Shown in pieces: positions 18,150 to 58,265 of a stretch of DNA of 64,000 bases (within the stretch, counting starts at the first letter, position 1; each line of letters starts with the position of its first letter). The position numbers and the translations under genes were made by a program. Location of the stretch: the NCBI GenBank assembly GCA_965223265.1, contig OZ244999.1:7424001-7488000 (forward strand), in the 5' to 3' direction. Origin of the DNA: Planctomycetota bacterium. GTDB taxonomy: Bacteria; Planctomycetota; UBA8108; SXIK01. The notes under the pieces were generated by a model, which worked only from the letters and a program-made list of their open reading frames with translations, made no database searches and was not told where the DNA came from.

Positions 18150-18218
18150 GTGGGAGTGTGGGTGGGAGTGTGGGTGGGAGTGTGGGTGGGAGTGTGGGTG
18201 GGAGTGTGGGTGGGAGTG
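18150..18218 (+). repeat. (GTGGGAGTGTGG) x5.7 tandem repeat, G-quadruplex-prone
   Basis: Five perfect 12-mers from 18150 plus a partial copy, with repeated GGG tracts. Confidence 0.95.
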
Positions 18219-18221
18219 GAC

Positions 18222-18331
18222 GTGTCCGGTACGCTTCTGACTCGGTATCGGTATCTGCCTCTGACTCTGACTCCGTATCCGTATCCGCCTCTGCCTCTGG
18301 CTCTGACTCCGTATCTGTTTCCGTATCTGTC
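18222..18331 (+). repeat. Left direct repeat of cassette A (hexamer-periodic TCTGAC/TCCGTA/TCTGCC array)
   Basis: 18222-18257 is identical over 36 nt to 18961-18996. Both continue as degenerate TCNGNN hexamers. Confidence 0.9.
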
Positions 18332-18337
18332 TCGTCG

Positions 18338-18370
18338 TCAAAACCCGCCGCGCGAAGTGCTGCACGGCGG
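18338..18370 (-). terminator. Hairpin plus T-tract downstream of four-helix-bundle gene A
   Basis: On the minus strand CCGCCGTGC...GCGCGGCGG is followed by GTTTTGA. The same structure is conserved downstream of copy C. Confidence 0.6.
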
Positions 18371-18385
18371 ACCAAGGTTTCCGCG

Positions 18386-18709
18386 TCAGCGCGTCAGTTT
18401 CCAGAGCATTGCCTGCAGCCGATCGATGTCCGCAAGCACCGCAGTTGTCTCCACTGCATCGACGTAGCCCCACGCCTCAGCAACGCGCAGAGCCGTCCGC
18501 ACCTCCTCGGCGCTGCCCGAAGCAATGCGCCAAAGATGGCCGCGGTCACGACCCTGACGCCGATTGCCCTCGCCGAGGTTGAGTGCCACTGAAGAACCCG
18601 CGTCGCGCAGCTGAGCGGCCAGCTTTGAGTCGTGACGACGGATGCTCGAGACAAGGGGACGCAGCTGACGAACGATGCCAAAAGTGTGATCCAGAGCAAG
18701 AAAGCTCAT
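18386..18709 (-). CDS. Four-helix-bundle protein (23S rRNA IVP / bAvd-like), copy A
   Basis: 107 aa with the family signature L..QLRDAGSSVALNLGEG...R...IASGSAEEV.T.L..A..WGY. GGAG RBS. Differs from copy C at 11 of 107 positions. Confidence 0.85.
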   Translation of the reverse strand: MSFLALDHTFGIVRQLRPLVSSIRRHDSKLAAQLRDAGSSVALNLGEGNRRQGRDRGHLWRIASGSAEEVRTALRVAEAWGYVDAVETTAVLADIDRLQAMLWKLTR

Positions 18710-18754
18710 GTGTGACTCCGGTAACGGCTGAGCGACCTGTCGCCGACGCCCGAC

Positions 18755-18878
18755 GCGGCGGCGTTTCACTGCCGCCAACCGAACGAGAGACGGGGTCAAG
18801 GGCGCGAAGCGCCGAGCGCAGCGAGGGCACCCTTGAGGCCGGCTCTCGTTCGGTTACGATCGACACAATCGCCGCCGC
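18755..18878 (-). ncRNA. Conserved structured leader element (RNA or ssDNA), copy A
   Basis: Nested stems GCGGCGGCG/CGCCGCCGC, AACCGAACGAGAG/CTCTCGTTCGGTT and TCAAGGG/CCCTTGA. The 42-nt core at 18795-18836 is identical in all three copies. Confidence 0.7.
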
Positions 18879-18960
18879 ACGCACGCCATAGCAACCCGCC
18901 GCTTCTCTGCCTGCCTCCGACTCGATCTCCGATTCCGCCTCGGAATGCGTGGGCGTGGGA

Positions 18961-19111
18961 GTGTCCGGTACGCTTCTGACTCGGTATCGGTATCTGGCTC
19001 TGACCCGTGTCTCCGTATCTGCCTCTGACTCTGACTCCGTATCCGTATCCGTATCTGCCTCTGACTCTGACTCCGTATCTGTTTCCGCCTCTGCCTCTGA
19101 ACAGAGGCGGA
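18961..19111 (+). repeat. Right direct repeat of cassette A (hexamer array ending in a hairpin)
   Basis: Matches 18222 onward. Ends with the inverted repeat TCCGCCTCTG...CAGAGGCGGA at 19084-19111. Confidence 0.9.
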
Positions 19112-19151
19112 TACGGACGCCGGGGACGCAGTCGGGACCGGCTCGTTTCGT

Positions 19152-21677
19152 TCACGGCAGATGGGCGCGGCTGCGGATCAACCACTCCACTAGCAGGATT
19201 CCAAGCACGAGTGACAGCAGCAGTAAAGGGGAATCCCACGCCGTCATGGTTTCGGTGTGGGCGGCGACGCGTGAGTCGCGGTGCCACAATTCGCCACACT
19301 CGTCGGCACGGCTGAGGGGCAGAAAGACGCCGTCGGTCAAGGTGGCGAGCTCCTTGAGAAGTGTGGCATTGCAGCTGAGATCTGAGGACTCGGGGTCATC
19401 TTCCGGGACGACCACAAAGGACACGGTCGCACGCTCCTTCGCTGCGTCGTAGCCAGGCACCGTGGCAGGATCGATGGCCGCATGGAATTCGCGCGCTGCG
19501 AGGGTGTTTTTCTCATCCCCATTCACCCTCGCAGGCTCGCCGTTGCCTACGGACTCGAGTAGCCGCTGCGCGGAAACACGGCCTCGATACCGATGCCCGC
19601 CGCGTTCGACGGGTGCCAGCGTGACGCGCAGCCGCGGAGCTCCGGCGGCACTGGTCGTCGCCGCGTCGACCGTGCTGGCCGTGAGCAGGGCGGTGATGCG
19701 GTCGACGTTCGCCGCGGTGACGTCGTCCTTCAAGACGGTCTCGATCGTGATGTCTTCGTTCGACTCGTAGATCGTCTCGCTAGCGCCAAGGCGCAGCGCA
19801 TCGTCTTCTTCACTCAGCTCGGAGAGCACCGCAAATCGCACAAGTTGCTCCCAGAACCGGGTGTGCAGTCGGTCTCCAATGCGATAACGCCATCGCCAGG
19901 TTGAATCGATTCCGAGATAGATCACGCGACCCGCACCGATGTCGCGGGTCACGAGAACCGCGCCTCGCGAATGCACGAATTCGCGAGCTCGCGCGGCGCG
20001 ATTTCGAACGCCCGCCGCAAACGAGTCGAATCCTCTCAACTTCTTCACATCCCGCACGGCTACGCTCGCCAGGACCTCGGCTCCCTCGACAACACCGTCA
20101 ACCGGTGAAAGCCATAGATGGGCTGGGAGAAGCTCCCACAACTCGACGTTGCGTTCGCGATCGGTCAGAAGGCGTGTGATGGGAGATCTTTCGCCAGCAG
20201 GTGTCAACTCGAGGCTCAACCCCTCGCGCGCGGTCACGAAGCCAAGCTGCGTCGACGGCAGCGGATCGACGGGTCGGATCGGTAGTAGATCAGCCAGCGG
20301 CGTTGCGAGCCACGCGTATGGCATGTGCTGCGGTCCCGCCAACAACATCAGGGTGCCGCCGCGCTCAGTGACGAAGTCGTTGAGTAGTCTTTTCAGCTCT
20401 CGCGACATCACGTCGGGTGACACGTCACCGAGGATCAAGAGCGTGTGCTCGAACAGCCCCTCTCGCGTGGTGGGAAATTCCGGCGGCAACACGTCGTTCG
20501 GTGCCGCTGCGAGCAAAAGCGTCTCGGCGTCAAAGCGTTCATCGCGCTGCCAGCGAGCCCGAAGATAGCGCCAGTCCCATCGCGGTCGACCCTCCAGATA
20601 GAGGACTCGCGCTGGGCCTTCCACCACGTCGACCCACAGTTCACGCGTGTTGTTGTCGGCGGTGATCTCCCCGGGCTCCGCCGGCACACTGACGACAAAC
20701 TTCTTACGACCTGCCGCGCCAGGATCGAATGCAACCGATACGCCCATTGTTCCACCCCCGTCGGGCACGGTCAGTCTCTGTTCGAAGATCGTTTCGTCCT
20801 CACGTCGCACGATCACATCCAGAGGAGTGCCTGCGTCAAACCCATTAACTCTGAGAGTCACATGCGCCTTGACGCTCTCACCGACCAAGAGACGGCGATC
20901 AGCGTCGATCCGGAGTAGGTCGACGTCCCGAGGCGGATCGATCGGCCCCACGCCAATGGCAGCAACCGGCGCGTTGAGCGCCGCAATGCGTTCGAAGGCT
21001 GCAGCAAGATCGTCAGGCGAGTGATGCCTGCCGTCGGTGACAAGCAACACGCCGGCAAGTCGCCGCCGATCTGCGAGCCGCATCAGCTCCGCGGCCAAAG
21101 GGGAGCCGAGATGCGTCCCCCCCGCCGCCCGCAGTGAATCCATCGCAGCCTGCTGCTCGGCCGCGTTGTCGCCGGGAAGCGGTGTGACATGGTCGGCGAG
21201 GGCGTAGAACTCTACATCGAAATCCCTCACCAGATCCTGCCACCAGCGCGTCGTAAAGAGTCGACGTGCGCGCTCGAGGCGCGTTGATCGACGCACGCGC
21301 TCGAGGACGACACGACTGGATTCGTCGATGTCGTGCTCGGACGCCGCGAGCTTTTCGGTCGGCAGATACTCCAGCACGGCCGCCTCACCGCGCACGGCGG
21401 CAGACGATTGCTGCGGATCGGTGAGGCCGAAGCTGGCGGAGGCGTCGAGCATCACCGCCAGAGTTGAGTGTTCGACTCGCCGCCGCTCACGCTGCCAACT
21501 CGGATTGGCGAGCAACGTGACGACGACAGCAATGAGCACGAGACGCGTCCCCGTGATGGCGATCGCGACTCCAGCGCCGCTAGCCCGCCGCTCACGCCCA
21601 CCCAGCGAGTATGCCAAACCCGCGGCACAGGCGAGCAGGACAACTACCCACTGAAGGCTCAGACCGGGGTCACTCAT
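19152..21677 (-). CDS. VWA-like plus glutamine-amidotransferase-like membrane protein (moxR/BatA cluster)
   Basis: N- and C-terminal TM segments, DASASF MIDAS-like motif, LVTDG, YLEGRPRWDWRYL, DSTWRWR and C-terminal EWLIR. Confidence 0.8.
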   Translation of the reverse strand: MSDPGLSLQWVVVLLACAAGLAYSLGGRERRASGAGVAIAITGTRLVLIAVVVTLLANPSWQRERRRVEHSTLAVMLDASASFGLTDPQQSSAAVRGEAAVLEYLPTEKLAASEHDIDESSRVVLERVRRSTRLERARRLFTTRWWQDLVRDFDVEFYALADHVTPLPGDNAAEQQAAMDSLRAAGGTHLGSPLAAELMRLADRRRLAGVLLVTDGRHHSPDDLAAAFERIAALNAPVAAIGVGPIDPPRDVDLLRIDADRRLLVGESVKAHVTLRVNGFDAGTPLDVIVRREDETIFEQRLTVPDGGGTMGVSVAFDPGAAGRKKFVVSVPAEPGEITADNNTRELWVDVVEGPARVLYLEGRPRWDWRYLRARWQRDERFDAETLLLAAAPNDVLPPEFPTTREGLFEHTLLILGDVSPDVMSRELKRLLNDFVTERGGTLMLLAGPQHMPYAWLATPLADLLPIRPVDPLPSTQLGFVTAREGLSLELTPAGERSPITRLLTDRERNVELWELLPAHLWLSPVDGVVEGAEVLASVAVRDVKKLRGFDSFAAGVRNRAARAREFVHSRGAVLVTRDIGAGRVIYLGIDSTWRWRYRIGDRLHTRFWEQLVRFAVLSELSEEDDALRLGASETIYESNEDITIETVLKDDVTAANVDRITALLTASTVDAATTSAAGAPRLRVTLAPVERGGHRYRGRVSAQRLLESVGNGEPARVNGDEKNTLAAREFHAAIDPATVPGYDAAKERATVSFVVVPEDDPESSDLSCNATLLKELATLTDGVFLPLSRADECGELWHRDSRVAAHTETMTAWDSPLLLLSLVLGILLVEWLIRSRAHLP

Positions 21678-21981
21678 TGAACTGATATAGGGTCTTCCGT
21701 ATCAAGAGGTCGCCGCGACAGCTCCTGGCCCGCCGCTCCCATCGCGGCGATGAATATCCTCTGGAAAAGAATGGAGACATTATCGTCACTTGCGTCTATG
21801 CAAGGCTATCATCTCTCCGACAAACGGCCGATCACATCATGAGACGGCTATTCGTGGCGACGATATACCTGCGCGGTGGAGACTCGATGCCGGCGAGTTC
21901 TCGGCCGACTGACAGCGCTGCGGGCAGCGAATTCACGGACGAAACACCGGTGAACCGAACGCGAGGAGGAGCCCCTATCAG

Positions 21982-24900
21982 GTGACTGCGTCCAAACCGA
22001 ATACTCTTGCGGCTCTCCTGACGACGCAGTTTCTCGGCGCGTTCAACGACAACGCCTGGAAGATGGTGGCGATTCTTCTCGGCACCCGCGTCGCAAGCGA
22101 CGCGGACCGTCTCGCCGAGAGCAGTCGGCAGTGGACGCTTGCATTCGTCGCCTTCAGCGTGCCATACCTGATTCTATCGCTTCCCGCGGGATCGTTGGCA
22201 GACCGCGTCAGCAAGCGTACTGTGCTGATTGTGGCCAAAGCGGTCGAGATGGCACTCATGATCGCGGGGCTGGCTGTCCTCGTCTTGGCGCCGAATGAGC
22301 CGTGGCTTCTCCTTGGCATCCTCGCCTGCATGGGGGCGCAGTCGGCACTTCTTGGACCCGCAAAGTACGGCATCGTGCCAGAACTCGTGCCGCACTCGCG
22401 GCTCTCGTCGGCGAACGGACAAATCGAGCTCTGGACCTTTGCGGCGATCGTTCTCGGCACTGCGGGAGGTGGCGTCCTTCTCGATCTCAGCGAGACTGCC
22501 ACCGACGGAGTGTGGCTCGTCGGCATCGCCCTTGTGGTTCTAGCCGCCGTCGGACTCGCCGCCTCGCGTCGCGTACCGCACGTTCCAGCGGTCGGCAGCC
22601 GTGAACCACTCGTCGCGACCGTCCACGGTGCATGGAATTCCATTCGTTCCGAACGCATTCTCTGGCTGACCGTTCTAGGGCTCACATTCTATTGGGGAAT
22701 CATTTCGCTTGTCGGTCAAGTGATCGGCATCTACGTGCAGAACGATCTCAAAGCGACGGACGCGCAGGCCGGACTACCGCTGGCGATCTTCGGTGTCGGT
22801 GTCGGTGTCGGCAGCCTGTTCGCCGGGCACTTTTCGCGCGGCAAGGTCGAGTCGGGACTGATCCCATTTGGTGCCCTTGGCCTGGCAACGACACTCGTGC
22901 TCATGGGAAATCTGCCGCCCGAGTCCGTCAGCACGATGCTGCCGTGGGCCTTCGCGATGGGGTTTGCGAGCGGACTCATGATTGTGCCGCTCAACGCACT
23001 CCTGCAGTGGCGCTCACCGGAGAATCGTCGCGGCGCGATTATCGCGCTGTCGAACGTCTTCGTATCGGTCGGCATCATCGCGGGCTCCTTGAGCTCCAAC
23101 CTCCTATCAGCCTGGGGCAACACGGCGAGCTCGAGCATTCTGAGCGCCGGCGTCCTCACCGTCATCGGGTCTCTTTGGTCGCTCTGGATCCTACCAAGCG
23201 CGTTTCTTCGCCTGCTCCTGCTCCTCCTGACGAACACGCTCTACCGACTCAAGATTCTCGGACGGGCTAATGTGCCCGAAACCGGTGGCGCACTTCTCGT
23301 CCCGAACCACGTCTCGTTCGCCGACGGTTTGTTTCTCATCGCCAGTGTCGATCGGCCGATTCGATTCATCGTCGACGCGAACTACTTCCATCATCCAGTG
23401 CTTAAGCCGTTCATGAAGTCGCTTGGAGCCATCCCAATCACGGCAGCAGGCGGCCCACGGGTGGTCTTGCGTGCGCTCCGTGACGCAGGGGAATACTTGG
23501 AGCAAGGGCACCTGGTGTGCATCTTCGCCGAGGGACAAATTACGCGCACCGGCATGCTGCTCCCGTTTCGCCGCGGACTCGAGCGCATCGTCAAAGGCCG
23601 GAATGTGCCCATCATTCCGGTCCACCTTGATGGCGCCTGGGGCAGCGTCTTTAGCCGCTCGGGCGGGCGCTTCTTGCTGAAGATTCCGCAACGAGTCCCG
23701 TATCCGATCACGGTGACGTTCGGGGAAACCCTCGACCCAGGCACGAGGGTCGCAGATATCAGACGGTCCGTGCACGAGCTCAGCGAAGTCGCGTGGCGCA
23801 GTCGCACCTCAGAGCGGCGTCCACTGCACCATTCCTACATCAAGCGCGCGCGGCGCCGCCCGCTGCGACTAATCTTCGCGGATGCAACGAAGCCGAAAGT
23901 GACTGGGTTCGCTTCCCTGGTCGGAGCCATCGCCTTGGCTCGAGCACTACGCCGACACTGGCCCGGAAGCGAACGCGTTGGTATTCTTCTGCCCTCGTCG
24001 GTCGCTGGAGCGTTGACCAACATCGCTGCGACCATGGCTGGAAAAACCAGCGTCAACCTAAACTTCACCACCGGACAGTCAAGCTTCGAGTCAGCGATTC
24101 GCCAGTCGGGACTGAAAAGCGTAGTGACGAGTCGACAGATGCTGGAGAAGGTCCAGCTGACAATTCCAGAAGGCGTCACCACAGTGTGGTTAGAAGATGT
24201 TCACAAGAACATCGGCGTCGGGGCCAAATTGTTTGCCTTCATGATTGCTGCGTTGGCACCGACGCGTGTCGTCGAGCGCGCATGCGGATCTGAGAAGAAG
24301 ATCACCGGCGGCGACACGGTAACGATCATCTTTAGCAGCGGCAGTACCGGAGAACCAAAGGGCGTTATGCTCACCCACGCGAACATCGATGCGAACGTCG
24401 AAGGCGTCGCCCAAGTGACCCGTGTCAACGCCGACGATTGTTTGATCGGACTCCTTCCTCTATTCCACTCATTCGGATACATGGCGCTCTGGTTCGCGGC
24501 GAATCGCCGTCTAGCGACCGTGTTTCATCCCAACCCGTTGGACGCCGGCATGGTGGGCGAGCTCGTCCACCGCTACAGCGTCTCGCTCCTGATCGCCACC
24601 CCAACCTTCCTGCAGCTCTACCTACGGCGCTGCACGCCGGCCCAGTTCGGCTCACTGAGGCTTGTACTGGTCGGCGCAGAAAAGCTATCTGACCGTTTGG
24701 CGCTGGCTTTCGAAGAACAGTTCGGCATCCGTCCCGTAGAGGGCTACGGAGCGACGGAGTGCTCGCCGGCGATCACGGTGAGCGCAGGAGACTATCGCGC
24801 CCCAGGTTTCTTCCAGCCTGGCTCGCGCCGTGGATCTGTGGGCCAACCGCTACCCGGCGTGGCTGTCCGTATCGTAAACCCTGACAGCCGAGAAGAACTG

Positions 24901-25413
24901 CCTTTCGGCGAAGCAGGGTTGATCCTCGTCAAGGGTCCCAACGTCATGCAGGGCTATCTGGGACGCGACGACCTGACCGAAGAGGCGATGAAGGATGGCT
25001 GGTACGTCACAGGTGACATCGGGGTGATGGACGAAGACGGCTTTCTTCGCATCACGGATCGCCTCTCTCGGTTTTCGAAGATTGGTGGAGAGATGGTCCC
25101 GCACGGACGCGTCGAGGCCGCCCTCCAAGAAGCTGCCGGAGAGGACATGCAGGTCTTCGCTGTGACGTCCATCGTCGACGATCGAAAGGGTGAAAAACTC
25201 ATCGTACTCCACACCCTCGACGAAGACCGGATTCCGAAGATCGTTGAACAGCTCGCTCAAGCGGGGCTCCCGAATCTGTTTGTGCCACGGCCGGACCAGT
25301 TCCTCAAGGTTGAAACCCTCCCCGTGTTGGGCACGGGCAAGCTCGATCTACGTGCGATCAAGACCATCGCCGAGGAGGCGTTCGCGCCGTCGACAGCCGC
25401 GGGCGATCGTTAG
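21982..25413 (+). CDS. aas: MFS (LplT)-acyltransferase-acyl-ACP synthetase fusion (Aas-like)
   Basis: MFS N-terminus (TQFLGAFNDN, GPAKYG), PlsC motif NHVSFAD, and AMP-binding motifs FSSGSTGEPKG, EGYGATE, WYVTGD. GAGGAGGAG RBS. Confidence 0.9.
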   Translation: MTASKPNTLAALLTTQFLGAFNDNAWKMVAILLGTRVASDADRLAESSRQWTLAFVAFSVPYLILSLPAGSLADRVSKRTVLIVAKAVEMALMIAGLAVLVLAPNEPWLLLGILACMGAQSALLGPAKYGIVPELVPHSRLSSANGQIELWTFAAIVLGTAGGGVLLDLSETATDGVWLVGIALVVLAAVGLAASRRVPHVPAVGSREPLVATVHGAWNSIRSERILWLTVLGLTFYWGIISLVGQVIGIYVQNDLKATDAQAGLPLAIFGVGVGVGSLFAGHFSRGKVESGLIPFGALGLATTLVLMGNLPPESVSTMLPWAFAMGFASGLMIVPLNALLQWRSPENRRGAIIALSNVFVSVGIIAGSLSSNLLSAWGNTASSSILSAGVLTVIGSLWSLWILPSAFLRLLLLLLTNTLYRLKILGRANVPETGGALLVPNHVSFADGLFLIASVDRPIRFIVDANYFHHPVLKPFMKSLGAIPITAAGGPRVVLRALRDAGEYLEQGHLVCIFAEGQITRTGMLLPFRRGLERIVKGRNVPIIPVHLDGAWGSVFSRSGGRFLLKIPQRVPYPITVTFGETLDPGTRVADIRRSVHELSEVAWRSRTSERRPLHHSYIKRARRRPLRLIFADATKPKVTGFASLVGAIALARALRRHWPGSERVGILLPSSVAGALTNIAATMAGKTSVNLNFTTGQSSFESAIRQSGLKSVVTSRQMLEKVQLTIPEGVTTVWLEDVHKNIGVGAKLFAFMIAALAPTRVVERACGSEKKITGGDTVTIIFSSGSTGEPKGVMLTHANIDANVEGVAQVTRVNADDCLIGLLPLFHSFGYMALWFAANRRLATVFHPNPLDAGMVGELVHRYSVSLLIATPTFLQLYLRRCTPAQFGSLRLVLVGAEKLSDRLALAFEEQFGIRPVEGYGATECSPAITVSAGDYRAPGFFQPGSRRGSVGQPLPGVAVRIVNPDSREELPFGEAGLILVKGPNVMQGYLGRDDLTEEAMKDGWYVTGDIGVMDEDGFLRITDRLSRFSKIGGEMVPHGRVEAALQEAAGEDMQVFAVTSIVDDRKGEKLIVLHTLDEDRIPKIVEQLAQAGLPNLFVPRPDQFLKVETLPVLGTGKLDLRAIKTIAEEAFAPSTAAGDR

Positions 25414-25470
25414 CGCCAGCTGGAATTTGGCCATTCGGCGCGCCAAGGCGGTAAGCGCTGCGCGTGCGCG

Positions 25471-25530
25471 TGGGCGTGGGAGTGAGAGCGGTGTGAGAGC
25501 GGTGTGAGAGCGGTGTGAGAGTCGGCGTGG
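25471..25530 (+). repeat. GTG-hexamer simple repeats including (GTGTGAGAGCGG) x~3
   Basis: Read directly from the sequence, just downstream of the aas stop codon. Confidence 0.8.
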
Positions 25531-25710
25531 GCGATCGCGTGGCGCGTGGGGTTTCCTAAACTAGCGGGTGCACGCCGAGGCTGTGAATCTTTTGGGACGT
25601 GCCCTCGAAACTTACGGTCACGGTCCGGACGACACACGTCACCGTGTGCCGTCCGCTCTTGCGAGAGCGAGAGGGGGAGTCCGTGTGGGAGTGGGAGGGG
25701 GAGTGGGAGG

Positions 25711-26285
25711 GGGAGTCCGTGTGGGAGTCCGTGTGGGAGGGGGTGCGCGCCTCTTCAACGTGGCAGGCACACGCCGTGTGCCGTCCGGCCTTGTCGGCGT
25801 GCGCGTCGGCCGTTCCCGTGGGTGTGGGAGTCCGTGTGGGAGTCCGTGTGGGAGGGGGTGCGCGCCTCTTCAACGTGGCAGGCACACGCCGTGTGCCGTC
25901 CGGCCTTGTCGGCGTGCGCGTCGGCCGTTCCCGTGGGTGTGGGAGTCCGTGTGGGAGTCCGTGTGGGAGGGGGTGCGCGCCTCTTCAACGTGGCAGGCAC
26001 ACGCCGTGTGCCGTCCGGCCTTGTCGGCGTGCGCGTCGGCCGTTCCCGTGGGTGTGGGAGTCCGTGTGGGAGTCCGTGTGGGAGGGGGTGCGCGCCTCTT
26101 CAACGTGGCAGGCACACGCCGTGTGCCGTCCGGCCTTGTCGGCGTGCGCGTCGGCCGTTCCCGTGGGTGTGGGAGTCCGTGTGGGAGTCCGTGTGGGAGG
26201 GGGTGCGCGCCTCTTCAACGTGGCAGGCACACGCCGTGTGCCGTCCGGCCTTGTCGGCGTGCGCGTCGGCCGTTCCCGTGGGTGT
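25711..26285 (+). repeat. Five perfect tandem copies of a 115-bp unit, each with a REP-like palindrome
   Basis: CTCTTCAACG recurs at 25751, 25866, 25981, 26096 and 26211. Each unit contains GTGG-CA-GGCACAC-GCC-GTGTGCC-GTCC. Confidence 0.95.
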
Positions 26286-26345
26286 GGGAGTCCGTGTGGG
26301 AGTCCGTGTGGGAGTCCGTGTGGGAGTCCGTGTGGGAGTCCGTGT
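26286..26345 (+). repeat. (GGGAGTCCGTGT) x5 tandem repeat
   Basis: Five perfect 12-mers immediately before leader B. Confidence 0.95.
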
Positions 26346-26363
26346 GGGTTGGGGTCACCGTAC

Positions 26364-26484
26364 GGCGGCGGTCTTGTCGAGCTTACGCGGTGCTCAGAAC
26401 TGTCAAGGGTGCCCTCGCTGCGCTCGGCGCTTCGCGCCCTTGACAGTTCCTCCGCTCCGCGTTGGGGGGTGGAGTACCGCCGCC
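26364..26484 (+). ncRNA. Conserved structured leader element, copy B
   Basis: Stems GGCGGCGGT/ACCGCCGCC, ACGCGG/CCGCGT and GAACTGTCAAGGG/CCCTTGACAGTTC. The core at 26403-26444 is identical to copies A and C. Confidence 0.7.
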
Positions 26485-26526
26485 CGGATGCGGCGGGCTC
26501 TTGACTCACCGTTTCGGAGGTCTCTC

Positions 26527-26850
26527 ATGCGCTTCATCGCTCTCGATGTCAGTCTCGGTTTGATTCGCGATTTGCGGGCTCCACTGCTGCGGCTTCGGAG
26601 GCTTGATCCCGATCTCCATCGGCAGATTCGGCGGGCTGCTTCTTCGGTCGCGCTCAATCTCTCCGAGGGTGCCGAGCGCGCTGGGAAAGACCGGCTGCAC
26701 CTCTACCGCGTTGCGCGCGGCAGTGCCCGGGAGGTCGAGACTGCCCTGCAGCTCTCTGTGGCCTGGGGCGATCTCAAGTGCGAAGACGTCTCAGCGCCTC
26801 TCCAGACCCTCGATCGACTCCTAGCTCTTCTCAGCGGCCTCACGCGCTGA
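26527..26850 (+). CDS. Four-helix-bundle protein (23S rRNA IVP / bAvd-like), copy B
   Basis: 107 aa after a GGAGG RBS (26516-26520), with QIRRAASSVALNLSEG...RVARGSAREV.TAL...AWG. 55 of 107 residues identical to copy C, ungapped. Confidence 0.85.
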   Translation: MRFIALDVSLGLIRDLRAPLLRLRRLDPDLHRQIRRAASSVALNLSEGAERAGKDRLHLYRVARGSAREVETALQLSVAWGDLKCEDVSAPLQTLDRLLALLSGLTR

Positions 26851-26862
26851 GCGAGACTACTG

Positions 26863-26890
26863 AGCGCCCGCTACTTTCGTAGCGGGCGCT
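26863..26890 (+). terminator. Perfect 12-bp hairpin downstream of copy B
   Basis: AGCGCCCGCTAC-TTTC-GTAGCGGGCGCT. Confidence 0.6.
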
Positions 26891-26903
26891 GCTCACGGCG
26901 ACT

Positions 26904-27288
26904 TCTGGATCTGATTCTGACTCTGTCATCTGGTTCTGTATTTCTATCCGTCTCTGATTCTGTCCCGACAGTTGCATAAGTTTTCGCAGGAAGGGCTCAG
27001 AAACCCTTTCCCTGAGGTTCGATCGGCAGTCGAAGGACGTCGCGGCGGACCTCACGTTTGGTGAGGTTGACGGTGTGCCGTGTTCCCTCTCGCCCACGCA
27101 CACCCACACGCAAACGCACACGCAAACTCTCACTCAACCGCAATCGCGCACGGTCTTAAGGCGCGTCTCTTTTGCAACGTTGGGGTCTGACTCTGTAATC
27201 TGGTTCTGTATCTCTATCCGCCATCCGTCTCTGATTCTGTCTCTGACTCCGGTTCCGTCCCCGTCTCTCCCTCTGCCTCTCCCCCACC
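26904..27288 (+). repeat. Spacer between cassettes B and C with duplicated TCTG-hexamer block and CAC-hexamer tract
   Basis: 26916-26964 nearly matches 27186-27241. A CACGCA/CACACG tract lies at about 27095-27135. Confidence 0.8.
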
Positions 27289-27321
27289 TCAAAACCCGCC
27301 GCGCCAAAAAAAGCACGGCGG
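27289..27321 (-). terminator. Hairpin plus T-tract downstream of copy C
   Basis: Homologous to 18338-18370, with a conserved stem and a different loop. Confidence 0.6.
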
Positions 27322-27337
27322 CCCCAAGACCCAAAGC

Positions 27338-27661
27338 TCAGCGCGTCAGCTTCCAAAGCATCGCCTGCAGCTCGTCGATGTCCGCAAGCACCGAAGCTGT
27401 CTCCTGCGCATCGACGTAGCCCCAAGCCTCAGCAACACGGAGCGCCGTACGCACCTCTTCGGCACTGCCTGAAGCGACACGCCAAAGGTGCCCGCGGTCA
27501 CGACCAGAGCGCCGATTGCCCTCGCCCAAATTCAGCGCCACGGAGGACCCCGCGTCGCGCAGCTGAGCGGCAAGCTTCGAGTCGTGACGACGCACACGCG
27601 AGACAAGCGGACGCAACTGACGAACGATACCAACAGAGTGATCCAAAGCGAGAAAGCCCAT
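27338..27661 (-). CDS. Four-helix-bundle protein (23S rRNA IVP / bAvd-like), copy C
   Basis: 107 aa, about 90% identical to copy A. GGAG RBS. Confidence 0.85.
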   Translation of the reverse strand: MGFLALDHSVGIVRQLRPLVSRVRRHDSKLAAQLRDAGSSVALNLGEGNRRSGRDRGHLWRVASGSAEEVRTALRVAEAWGYVDAQETASVLADIDELQAMLWKLTR

Positions 27662-27710
27662 GAGCGACTCCAGTCAACCGGTTGAGTGAAACTCTCGCCG
27701 CACGCCCGAC

Positions 27711-27834
27711 GCGGCGGCGTTTCACCCCCGCCAACGGAAGCAGAGTCGGGGTCAAGGGCGCGAAGCGCCGAGCGCAGCGAGGGCACCCTTGAGGCCGGCT
27801 CTGCTTCGGTTACGCTCGACAATACCGCCGCCGC
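27711..27834 (-). ncRNA. Conserved structured leader element, copy C
   Basis: Same 124-nt architecture as copy A, with the core at 27751-27792. The middle stem GAAGCAGAG/CTCTGCTTC is compensatory relative to A. Confidence 0.7.
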
Positions 27835-27859
27835 AAACGCCCCTTGGCGGCACACCTCT

Positions 27860-27991
27860 TCTCTGCTTCTGTCTCTGCTTCTGTCTCTGCTTCTGTCTCT
27901 GCTTCTGTCTCTGCTTCTGTCTCTGCTTCTGTCTCTGCTTCTGTCTCTGCTTCTGTCTCTGCTTCTGTCTCTGCTTCTGTCTCTGCTTCTG
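27860..27991 (+). repeat. (TCTCTGCTTCTG) x11 perfect tandem repeat
   Basis: Eleven 12-mers counted directly. Confidence 0.95.
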
Positions 27992-28104
27992 TCTCTGTCT
28001 CCGACTCACTAGGCGTCGACGTCTGCTTGACCTCTGAATCGCGGTGAACTCCGCAGGTCAGACGGGCGCGAATGGCTGCCAGACTCGCTAGACCCAAGGA
28101 CAGG

Positions 28105-58086: not shown

Positions 58087-58265
58087 CAGAGGCGGAGGCA
58101 GAGGCAGAGACAGAGACAGAGGCGCGCGCCCACGGTCACGCTCGCGCTCGCGCACACGCTCACGCTCACGCACAGGCCAACAAGACCGGACGGCACACGG
58201 CGTGTGCCTGCTACTTTGGGAGAGGCCCACGCTCACGCTCACGCTCACGCAATCGCAATCGCGCA
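58087..58265 (-). repeat. Composite hexamer-repeat / REP element without a gene
   Basis: AGAGGC/AGAGAC and CACGCT hexamer tracts surround a REP at 58186-58214. The flanks match the 115-bp unit. Confidence 0.8.

Follow-up and report, generated by a model that had tools for sequence, protein, structure and literature searches.

A dispersed PF05635 cassette with a covarying leader hairpin in a planctomycete genome: a possible selfish relative of the 23S rRNA intervening sequences

PF05635 is a very large protein family of unknown function that includes the open reading frames (ORFs) of intervening sequences (IVS) in rRNA. ORF-bearing IVS are found in the 23S rRNA of Leptospira as well as of Coxiella. 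PMC4990558 describes the IVS as a selfish, horizontally acquired element that RNase III excises, and the ORF of the Coxiella IVS is reported there to be decaying and not to be made in vivo. PF05635 proteins are said in PMC10053308 to resemble Avd, an accessory protein of diversity-generating retroelements (DGRs). In this study, we focused on a cassette that is built around a PF05635 gene and lies outside the rRNA genes of a Planctomycetota bacterium. Three copies of it (A, B and C) are present in a stretch of 64,000 nucleotides, hereafter the window, which corresponds to positions 7,424,001-7,488,000 of a single 9.18-Mb contig (OZ244999.1; about 61% G+C).

Each copy encodes a protein of 107 aa. 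Read in gene orientation, the order is the same in all three: a repeat tract, a 120-nt hairpin (the leader), a spacer of 43-51 nt that holds a small second hairpin and a GGAG(G) ribosome-binding site, the gene, a stable hairpin (-22 to -30 kcal/mol) and a second repeat tract. The initial annotation of the window had pointed to the three genes, to their common layout and to a nested-stem leader, and both the gene coordinates and the layout are confirmed here (Table 1). The leader length is the distance between its outer GC-rich arms, and each leader ends 43-51 nt before the ATG. Its apical part, a core of 42 nt, is identical in all three copies. In the literature searched, most subscription journals and supplements being outside that search, we came across no account of PF05635 cassettes that are dispersed and have leaders or repeats. 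We give about even chances to the reading that the cassette is a selfish, IVS-like unit that carries an RNA leader and has spread by recombination involving its repeats. It would then be an element that is gained and lost, of the same kind as the ORF-bearing IVS of 23S rRNA but living outside rRNA.

A discrete, multiplied unit with a structured leader

The cassette is multiplied to about 36 copies in this genome. The 9.18-Mb sequence contains 38 matches to the PF05635 hidden Markov model (HMM), 36 of them above the cut-off, and 39 sites with no more than 8 mismatches to the 42-nt core, 14 of which are exact. In 35 of the 38 gene matches the core lies 158-244 nt upstream of the HMM match on the same strand, so that leader and gene co-occur genome-wide at a fixed upstream distance. 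Tracts called by Tandem Repeats Finder (TRF) are present within 300 nt upstream of 30 of the 39 core sites and downstream of 21, against 3.2% of random 300-nt windows (the baseline for intergenic sequence is a rough estimate of up to about 30%). With the 35/38 coupling and the 30/39 tract enrichment over 3.2%, the pattern of leader, gene and repeat is far beyond chance. One of the three gene matches without a core has a divergent leader, which is still found at 85.5 bits by the covariance model described below. In the other two, an internal deletion fuses the 5' arm of the leader to the ribosome-binding region. These two cassettes, at 5176223-5176603 and 385600-386450, are natural leader-less alleles in which the central part of the hairpin is gone, and one of them keeps an intact gene.

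An ORF follows 35 of the 39 core sites. It is exactly 107 aa long in 34 cases and frameshifted in one, and 31 distinct proteins are encoded. Four cores have no gene match and represent either decayed copies or isolated fragments. The first still has the leader and the start of the gene, and its gene alignment is interrupted by a gap of about 63 nt; a second has lost the segment from the middle of the leader to the 3' end of the gene; in the third everything 3' of the core is gone; and the fourth is a core-like match in other sequence only. A partial leader hairpin without a gene is also present at 3.15 Mb. Frameshifted, orphan and deleted copies are the decay expected of a dispensable multicopy element.

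The unit is discrete and self-contained, with a length of about 0.55 kb. Copies at 80-84% identity align only over 26351-26889 or 27290-27842, an interval that begins with the leader and closes with the downstream hairpin; in A-type copies, similarity extends about 60 nt further upstream of the leader. The dispersed element first suggested by the three window copies is thus found as about 36 copies, and between diverged copies the homology covers only about 550 bp. Seven loci are convergent pairs, each of which joins one gene from each of the two subfamilies (A/C-type, 15 genes; B-type, 19 genes). The B/C module of the window recurs with its outer tracts at five further loci, and at four of these five a 220-nt repeat lies between the genes.

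The proteins of the cassette are under purifying selection, with a median ratio of nonsynonymous to synonymous substitution (dN/dS) of 0.14 in one subfamily and 0.135 in the other at dS of about 0.55-0.62. As first counted, A has 11 differences from C over 107 positions, and 55 of 107 residues are shared between B and C. All three window proteins score above the cut-offs of PF05635 (50-55.3 bits; cut-off 33.8) and TIGR02436 (52-57.7 bits; cut-off 24), and the cassette proteins are basic (pI 10.2-10.6). A profile of these proteins and their relatives had a sole match in the PDB, 2GSC (E 3.7e-15). The AlphaFold (AF2) model of B (pLDDT 96) has four helices and superposes on 2GSC (XCC0516) and 2RLD (BT_0352) with TM scores of 0.80-0.83 at 19-32% identity. 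On Avd (4DWL) the TM score is 0.82 (rmsd 1.8 A), at 7% identity and a Foldseek E of 0.16, and over 4DWL and the Avd chains of the DGR ribonucleoprotein together it is 0.80-0.82. The initial assignment to this family is therefore supported by the HMM cut-offs and the PDB match, while the description as Avd-like holds for the fold only, with an identity of 7%.

The leader fold is a real structure kept by compensatory changes. We aligned 27 intact leaders of this genome; 11 of the 38 sites with no more than 6 mismatches were left out (five interrupted by an inserted element, three truncated, three with an insertion beside the core). RNAalifold returned 38 pairs for this alignment, 12 of them with compensatory changes. 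The covariance model R1, built from the same alignment, matched 40 sites of this genome, 11 of G007, which belongs to a different family in the order, and 2 of G021, which is from the same class; the other 28 relatives gave no match. Over a sample of 150 genomes of the phylum, G021 was the only match. Each of the foreign leader loci that were read (five in G007 and both in G021) lies just upstream of a PF05635 gene, behind repeat arrays. When 20 leaders were aligned across genomes (12 from this genome, spanning the subfamilies, 5 from G007 and 3 from G021), 96.6% of the cells were standard pairs and 16 of the 31 pairs changed on both sides. None of 500 shuffles reached the observed values, and slid partners paired at no more than 46%. 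The structured leader seen in the window is thus confirmed by its tight coupling to the gene and by a covarying fold.

The fixed position of the leader before a ribosome-binding site, on the coding strand, suggests that it acts as RNA. In the transcript the hairpin might serve as a stem for processing or for translation control, by analogy with the RNase III stems of the IVS. The core is identical across subfamilies whose proteins are only about 50% identical, and it differs in G007, although the G007 proteins are nearer to the A type (about 70% identical by eye). This identity of the core across diverged subfamilies would favor a factor that is common to a whole genome over private pairing of each protein with its own leader. 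Judging from these sequence comparisons, the hairpin may be a binding site for such a shared factor, perhaps the protein itself.

The same design is found in other genomes. A pattern search of species-representative genomes returned 26 loci, many of them cut by contig ends, from metagenome-assembled genomes (MAGs) of Planctomycetota and Myxococcota (Anaeromyxobacteraceae, Kofleriaceae) and from unclassified MAGs. R1 (E<1e-4, filters off) matched 8 of the 26, all from two MAGs. Sixteen loci from 9 MAGs have at least 299 nt of upstream sequence and were examined for arrays (at least 3.5 copies, period up to 24 nt, no more than 500 nt upstream). Upstream arrays are present in 15 of them, mostly with a period of 6 or 7, and the sixteenth has a 50-copy downstream array. 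The upstream fold had z of -2.5 or lower in 10 of the 16 loci (30 simple shuffles). A long hairpin ends a few bases before the start codon in 7 of the 9 loci that were read, and by reading, its 3' arm contains the Shine-Dalgarno sequence in 4 of those 7. Relatives in other phylum-level lineages keep a hairpin before the start codon and repeats, in many cases with two genes arranged convergently. In a Planctomycetota MAG (JACKHP010000029.1, 1498-2503), two different PF05635 genes form a convergent pair with a near-perfect hairpin abutting each start codon, and one direct (CCCGAA/CCCGAT)n tract embeds the pair, an arrangement that mirrors the B/C module. In PMC10910872, a figure legend places "23S rRNA IVP" with the proteins linked to CRISPR-like arrays, in keeping with a general tendency of the family to lie near repeat arrays.

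Flanking tracts, empty sites and the spread of the cassette

The tracts that lie beyond the unit have hexamer periods and are strand-asymmetric. They are of a purine-rich kind (e.g. CAGAGG) and a C/A-rich kind (e.g. CCCACG, CAAACG), and the composite order is purine-rich then C/A-rich in 27 adjacencies, with the reverse order in none. The flanks of a cassette are direct copies of each other. For 18 solitary cassettes (21 sites being left out: five interrupted, four orphans and twelve pair members), the median direct score between upstream and downstream flanks was 31 within a locus against 10.5 between loci, with a permutation p of about 1e-4 that is overstated, as paralogous loci are not independent. 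Direct scores reach 112 and inverted scores are 7-25; for cassette A the two are 72.5 and 16. Inverted arrays enclosing the cassette, which we had considered, are ruled out in this genome by the direct flanks. One G007 locus has an inverted downstream array. The tract at 27860-27997 travels with C in the closest paralogous modules. Composite hexamer tracts also fill other intergenic spaces, at 58087-58260 of the window and in about 180 islands genome-wide. Merged TRF tracts number 35 per 400 kb both here and in the related genome G001, a measure that does not separate the genomes; arrays of at least 4 copies number 32.5 per Mb here and 5 in 0.4 Mb of G001 (a count from a listing, on a small sample).

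The sites of the window cassettes are empty in related genera. The genes that flank cassette A are 1246 nt apart here, and in three genomes of the same family, each of another genus, their orthologues are separated by gaps of about 35 nt, about 49 nt and less than about 120 nt. At the B/C site, the flanking genes are 2691 nt apart here and are convergent with a 23-nt overlap in G001, the one relative keeping synteny; in G002 synteny is broken on that side. PF05635 is absent from all three same-family genomes and was found in 5 of 30 relatives overall, with a patchy number of copies (0 to 37). The comparison for empty sites that had been proposed initially was thus run, and it gave compact junctions without the unit in three related genera. 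The compact junctions imply that the cassettes and tracts are insertions here, or else that they were lost in all three others.

The cassette carries no enzyme that could move it. The only ORF in it that is a gene is the 107-aa one, with no mobility enzyme and no transposase within the cassette. Terminal inverted repeats with a short target duplication are not seen either: in inverted orientation the flanks score no higher than background, and what lies there are long tracts in direct orientation. Recombination through the tracts appears to be the simplest mechanism because the flanks are direct and composite, solo tracts are many and no enzyme is present. New copies would then arise at the DNA level, either by the looping-out of a circle (cassette plus one tract) followed by re-entry, or by gene conversion into other tracts. 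Three movers were named when the window was first annotated, and of these repeat-mediated recombination is the best fit to the direct composite-tract flanks; a reverse transcriptase and an HUH enzyme are not borne out, since the reverse transcriptases of the genome belong to remote group II introns and its Y1_Tnp match is single and weak.

Several observations weigh against a selfish cassette spread through its repeats. The empty sites are at genus distance, where the family is absent altogether, and so they reflect gain or loss and not recent movement. No circle, excision product or within-species presence/absence polymorphism was seen. Action of the hairpin at the RNA level is suggested by its position and strand, and G-U pairs are too few in the cross-genome structure to exclude a DNA hairpin. 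If the cassette rides host transcripts, it should share the orientation of the host gene upstream, and on crude GC2/GC3 gene calls it did so in 22 of 36 cases, not a significant excess. A useful gene family of the ordinary sort would likewise show purifying selection, as seen on 34 copies. Of the 753 TRF tracts, just 58 are within 1 kb of a cassette, and of the 182 tract islands defined by the R1/R2 repeat patterns, 51 are within 1.2 kb (the reversed genome is a poor control for these pattern counts, as reversed repeats still match). Of the strict composite tracts, 20 of 27 stand alone without a cassette, and the orientation of tracts follows the replichore (GC-skew minimum at 7.9 Mb, maximum at 3.5 Mb). 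The tracts may therefore be a genome-wide feature that is independent of the cassette.

One alternative, which we regard as unlikely, is an ordinary, useful paralogous family with a regulatory hairpin in its 5' untranslated region (for autoregulation, for example), spread by segmental duplication and unlinked to the tracts. The low dN/dS (about 0.14), the 34 intact ORFs among 35 and the lack of a mobility gene in the unit would be as expected, and so would tracts that are mostly far from cassettes and oriented with the replichore. The whole B/C module of 1.7-2 kb has been copied six times together with its tracts, as in segmental duplication. However, the homology of older copies ends exactly at the start of the leader and at the end of the hairpin, and the copies sit at unrelated junctions that are compact in relatives. 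An ordinary family also fits poorly with a distribution that runs from 0 to 37 copies among relatives, with the presence of decayed copies, and with a design of repeat, hairpin and gene that recurs with unrelated repeat units in other phyla (15 of 16 loci).

A bolder view, which we hold to be quite improbable, is that a particle of PF05635 protein and hairpin itself writes or expands the adjacent short repeats, as one widespread and so far undescribed system. Template-reiterating or slippage-driven synthesis, with a logic like that of telomere addition, would make the repeats, and the repeats would then provide the homology for entering new sites. If true, this view would explain the unrelated repeat units beside the family in Planctomycetota and Myxococcota, and the replacement of the tight junctions of relatives by tract, cassette and tract.

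It is highly improbable that the cassette belongs to a retro-type system, in which the Avd-like protein and the leader RNA would work with a reverse transcriptase in trans and the repeats would be slipped or reiterated complementary DNA products. All four reverse-transcriptase (RVT_1) matches of the genome, which might have supplied such an enzyme, are identical group II intron ORFs (RVT_1 with GIIM), and none is near a cassette. No DGR-type reverse transcriptase was seen in the genome, and the repeat analyses, which included no dedicated search for a template/variable repeat pair, brought none to notice. The protein does match the fold of Avd, but the identity of 7% and the lack of a sequence-level match to Avd in the PDB weigh against this reading. 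Arrays of 6-7 nt accompany the family in every lineage examined, as reiterated products would; in this genome, tracts are common without cassettes. The group II intron ORFs lie at 1.90, 3.42, 3.52 and 5.91 Mb, and their identity suggests a recently active intron.

Transposition of the cassette as a single-stranded DNA hairpin element by an HUH enzyme of the IS200/RAYT type that recognises the leader is a very remote prospect. The leader is indeed a long imperfect hairpin with an invariant apical part, and the genome has one Y1_Tnp-like ORF; the latter is a single, weak (26-27 bits) and remote match, and nothing ties it to the leader. The 260 REP-like (repetitive extragenic palindromic) hairpins of the genome would be more natural partners for such an enzyme. 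In addition, the hairpin is at one end of the unit only, and the long direct flanks are unlike the short fixed target of IS200/IS605.

No recombinase had been noticed in the window; genome-wide, an element with a serine recombinase targets the leader. The element is 2668 bp long, and its product is a 702-aa large serine recombinase made up of Resolvase, Recombinase and zinc-ribbon domains. It is present in six copies of 99.85-100% identity, none of them in the window (one is at 7186471-7189138). In five copies the insertion falls in a B-type leader, always at the same place on the 5' edge of the core and with GT shared at both junctions, and the sixth abuts a truncated B-type gene. The insertions form a clean attachment-site series. 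It could be supposed that the leaders are primarily DNA attachment sites of this element, which would also shuffle the cassettes, since all six copies are in or beside B-type cassettes and five have the same GT junction. We think this very doubtful: only the B subfamily is struck and about 30 cassettes are uninterrupted, the A/C-type leaders do not have the crossover dinucleotide at that point, and the leader has a covarying fold that an attachment site does not need. The leader is also present in G007 and G021, where the element was not looked for. The best reading is that the element is a parasite of the leader and not its mover.

An assembly artefact, in which repeats of this repeat-rich region would have been misplaced or multiplied, has a negligible probability, as the genome is a single 9.18-Mb contig, the copies differ (31 distinct proteins among 35 copies, 80-98% DNA identity) and each has unique flanks, and four DNA-type runs of one study, drawn from two samples of which one may be the source, contain 87-91% of the words sampled from this stretch.

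Other features of the window

The features of the two cassette regions are collected in Table 1. In a terminator scan of both regions, none of the three downstream hairpins followed the strict T-run rule; the one strict terminator-like site, at 19130-19143 (+), is unrelated to the cassette. A sigma-70 scan of both regions gave no promoter-like site. In folds of the 3' half of the leader, a CUCC can pair with the ribosome-binding site, but with z of -0.6 to -1.6 we make no claim of an anti-Shine-Dalgarno switch. Rfam 15 had no match at the gathering score in the window, and the sole match of a permissive Rfam search of 25400-28100 was a chance-level snoRNA (E 1.7). None of the PADLOC defence-system models was matched by the three proteins, and a search of viral contigs returned no relative. 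The neighbouring genes are ordinary: a fused MFS (major facilitator superfamily)/acyltransferase/AMP-binding protein, a BatA/VWA protein and two ORFs without a Pfam family.

Table 1. Features of the cassette regions, in window coordinates
Feature	Position	Strand	Evidence
Repeat flank 3' of cassette A	18150-18333		TRF: (GTGGGAGTGTGG)x5.8, then hexamer-period tracts
Terminator-like hairpin after gene A, then TTTTG	18340-18385	-	Fold -21.9 kcal/mol, z -1.1
Gene A, 107-aa PF05635/TIGR02436 four-helix-bundle protein, pI 10.6	18386-18709	-	ORF, HMMs
Spacer A: small second hairpin, GGAG ribosome-binding site	18710-18756	-	Sequence, fold
Leader hairpin A, 120 nt; core 18795-18836	18757-18876	-	Covariance model R1, 138.9 bits
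Repeat flank 5' of cassette A, the composite tract of 18150-18333 in direct orientation	18940-19100		Sequence, TRF (array called at 18975-19100)
Repeat landscape 5' of cassette B: (GTGAGAGCGGT)x3.6, 115-nt unit x5.3, (GTGTGGGAGTCC)x5.6	25482-26348		TRF
Leader hairpin B, 120 nt; core 26403-26444	26364-26483	+	R1, 161.8 bits
Spacer B: second hairpin, GGAGG ribosome-binding site	26484-26526	+	Sequence, fold
Gene B, 107-aa PF05635 protein, second subfamily	26527-26850	+	HMMs; AF2 model, pLDDT 96
12-bp hairpin after gene B	26863-26890	+	Fold -29.7 kcal/mol, z -4.0
Pyrimidine-rich hexamer-like tract 3' of B	26900-26965		Sequence; below TRF score
Separate 220-nt dispersed repeat between B and C, outside the cassette	26964-27185		BLAST
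Hexamer-like tract 3' of cassette C	27186-27285		Sequence; below TRF score; close-copy homology starts at 27186-27290
Terminator-like hairpin after gene C, then TTTTG	27287-27329	-	Fold -24.6 kcal/mol, z -2.7
Gene C, 107-aa PF05635 protein	27338-27661	-	ORF, HMMs
Spacer C: second hairpin, ribosome-binding site	27662-27712	-	Sequence, fold
Leader hairpin C, 120 nt; core 27751-27792	27713-27832	-	R1, 143.1 bits
Repeat flank 5' of cassette C: (TCTCTGCTTCTG)x11.5	27860-27997		TRF

Two further repeats are present in the window. The REP-like hairpin has a 7-bp GC-rich stem and occurs at 25703-26314, as part of the 115-nt unit repeated 5.3 times before B, and at 58180-58215; where read, it lies inside C/A-rich hexamer tracts. 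The 220-nt repeat between B and C gave 39 BLAST hits in the genome, 22 of them of at least 150 nt. It also stands alone at many sites and has no Rfam match.

Comparison with known systems

About 36 copies in two subfamilies, a covarying leader, leader deletions, a recombinase that targets the leader and empty sites in relatives form a natural series around a single genome. With this series, the role of the hairpin, binding by the protein, the association with repeats and spread without an enzyme can be tested. Should the repeats prove to be homology arms or products of the element, the cassette would represent a way of moving genes that is new to the field. Should they be unlinked to it, the leader would remain a new structured RNA motif associated with a large family of unknown function.

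Several classes of short dispersed elements and relatives of the protein resemble the cassette in part. Miniature inverted-repeat transposable elements (MITEs), mobile insertion cassettes and REP/BIME sequences are likewise short, non-autonomous units dispersed through intergenic DNA; they contain hairpins and are often found between convergent genes. Unlike MITEs and REP sequences, the cassette has no terminal inverted repeats or short target duplication; it carries a gene under selection, and its flanks are long, direct, composite tandem repeats. Avd (4DWL, 8UB7) is also a small basic protein with a four-helix-bundle fold. However, at 7% identity there is no sequence-level match, and the DGR reverse transcriptase is missing from this genome. 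The best matches in both sequence and fold are the stand-alone family members 2GSC (XCC0516), which has 5 chains, and 2RLD (BT_0352), chains A-E being listed for both entries. Their titles report no leader or repeat context, unlike the cassette described here.

The closest described system is the 23S rRNA IVS, as in helix 45 of Coxiella burnetii with its S23p ORF. The PF05635 family is common to both, and both are small units that unite a long RNA stem and an ORF without a mobility gene. The initial annotation had seen no rRNA context for the window genes, and this is true of the genome: the single large-subunit rRNA gene is 2993 nt long (model, 2925 positions) and has no ORF-bearing insert, the nearest PF05635 match lying at 2.04 Mb. 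The cassette thus lies outside rRNA. Its hairpin is wholly 5' of the gene, whereas the stem of an IVS encloses the ORF. About 36 copies are present, which carry a ribosome-binding site and a terminator-like hairpin of their own. The flanks of the cassette are direct tandem-repeat tracts, and its protein is under purifying selection, whereas the Coxiella ORF is reported as decaying (PMC4990558). Because it lies outside rRNA and has no stem enclosing the ORF, we regard the cassette as a variant of the IVS kind rather than as a member of it.

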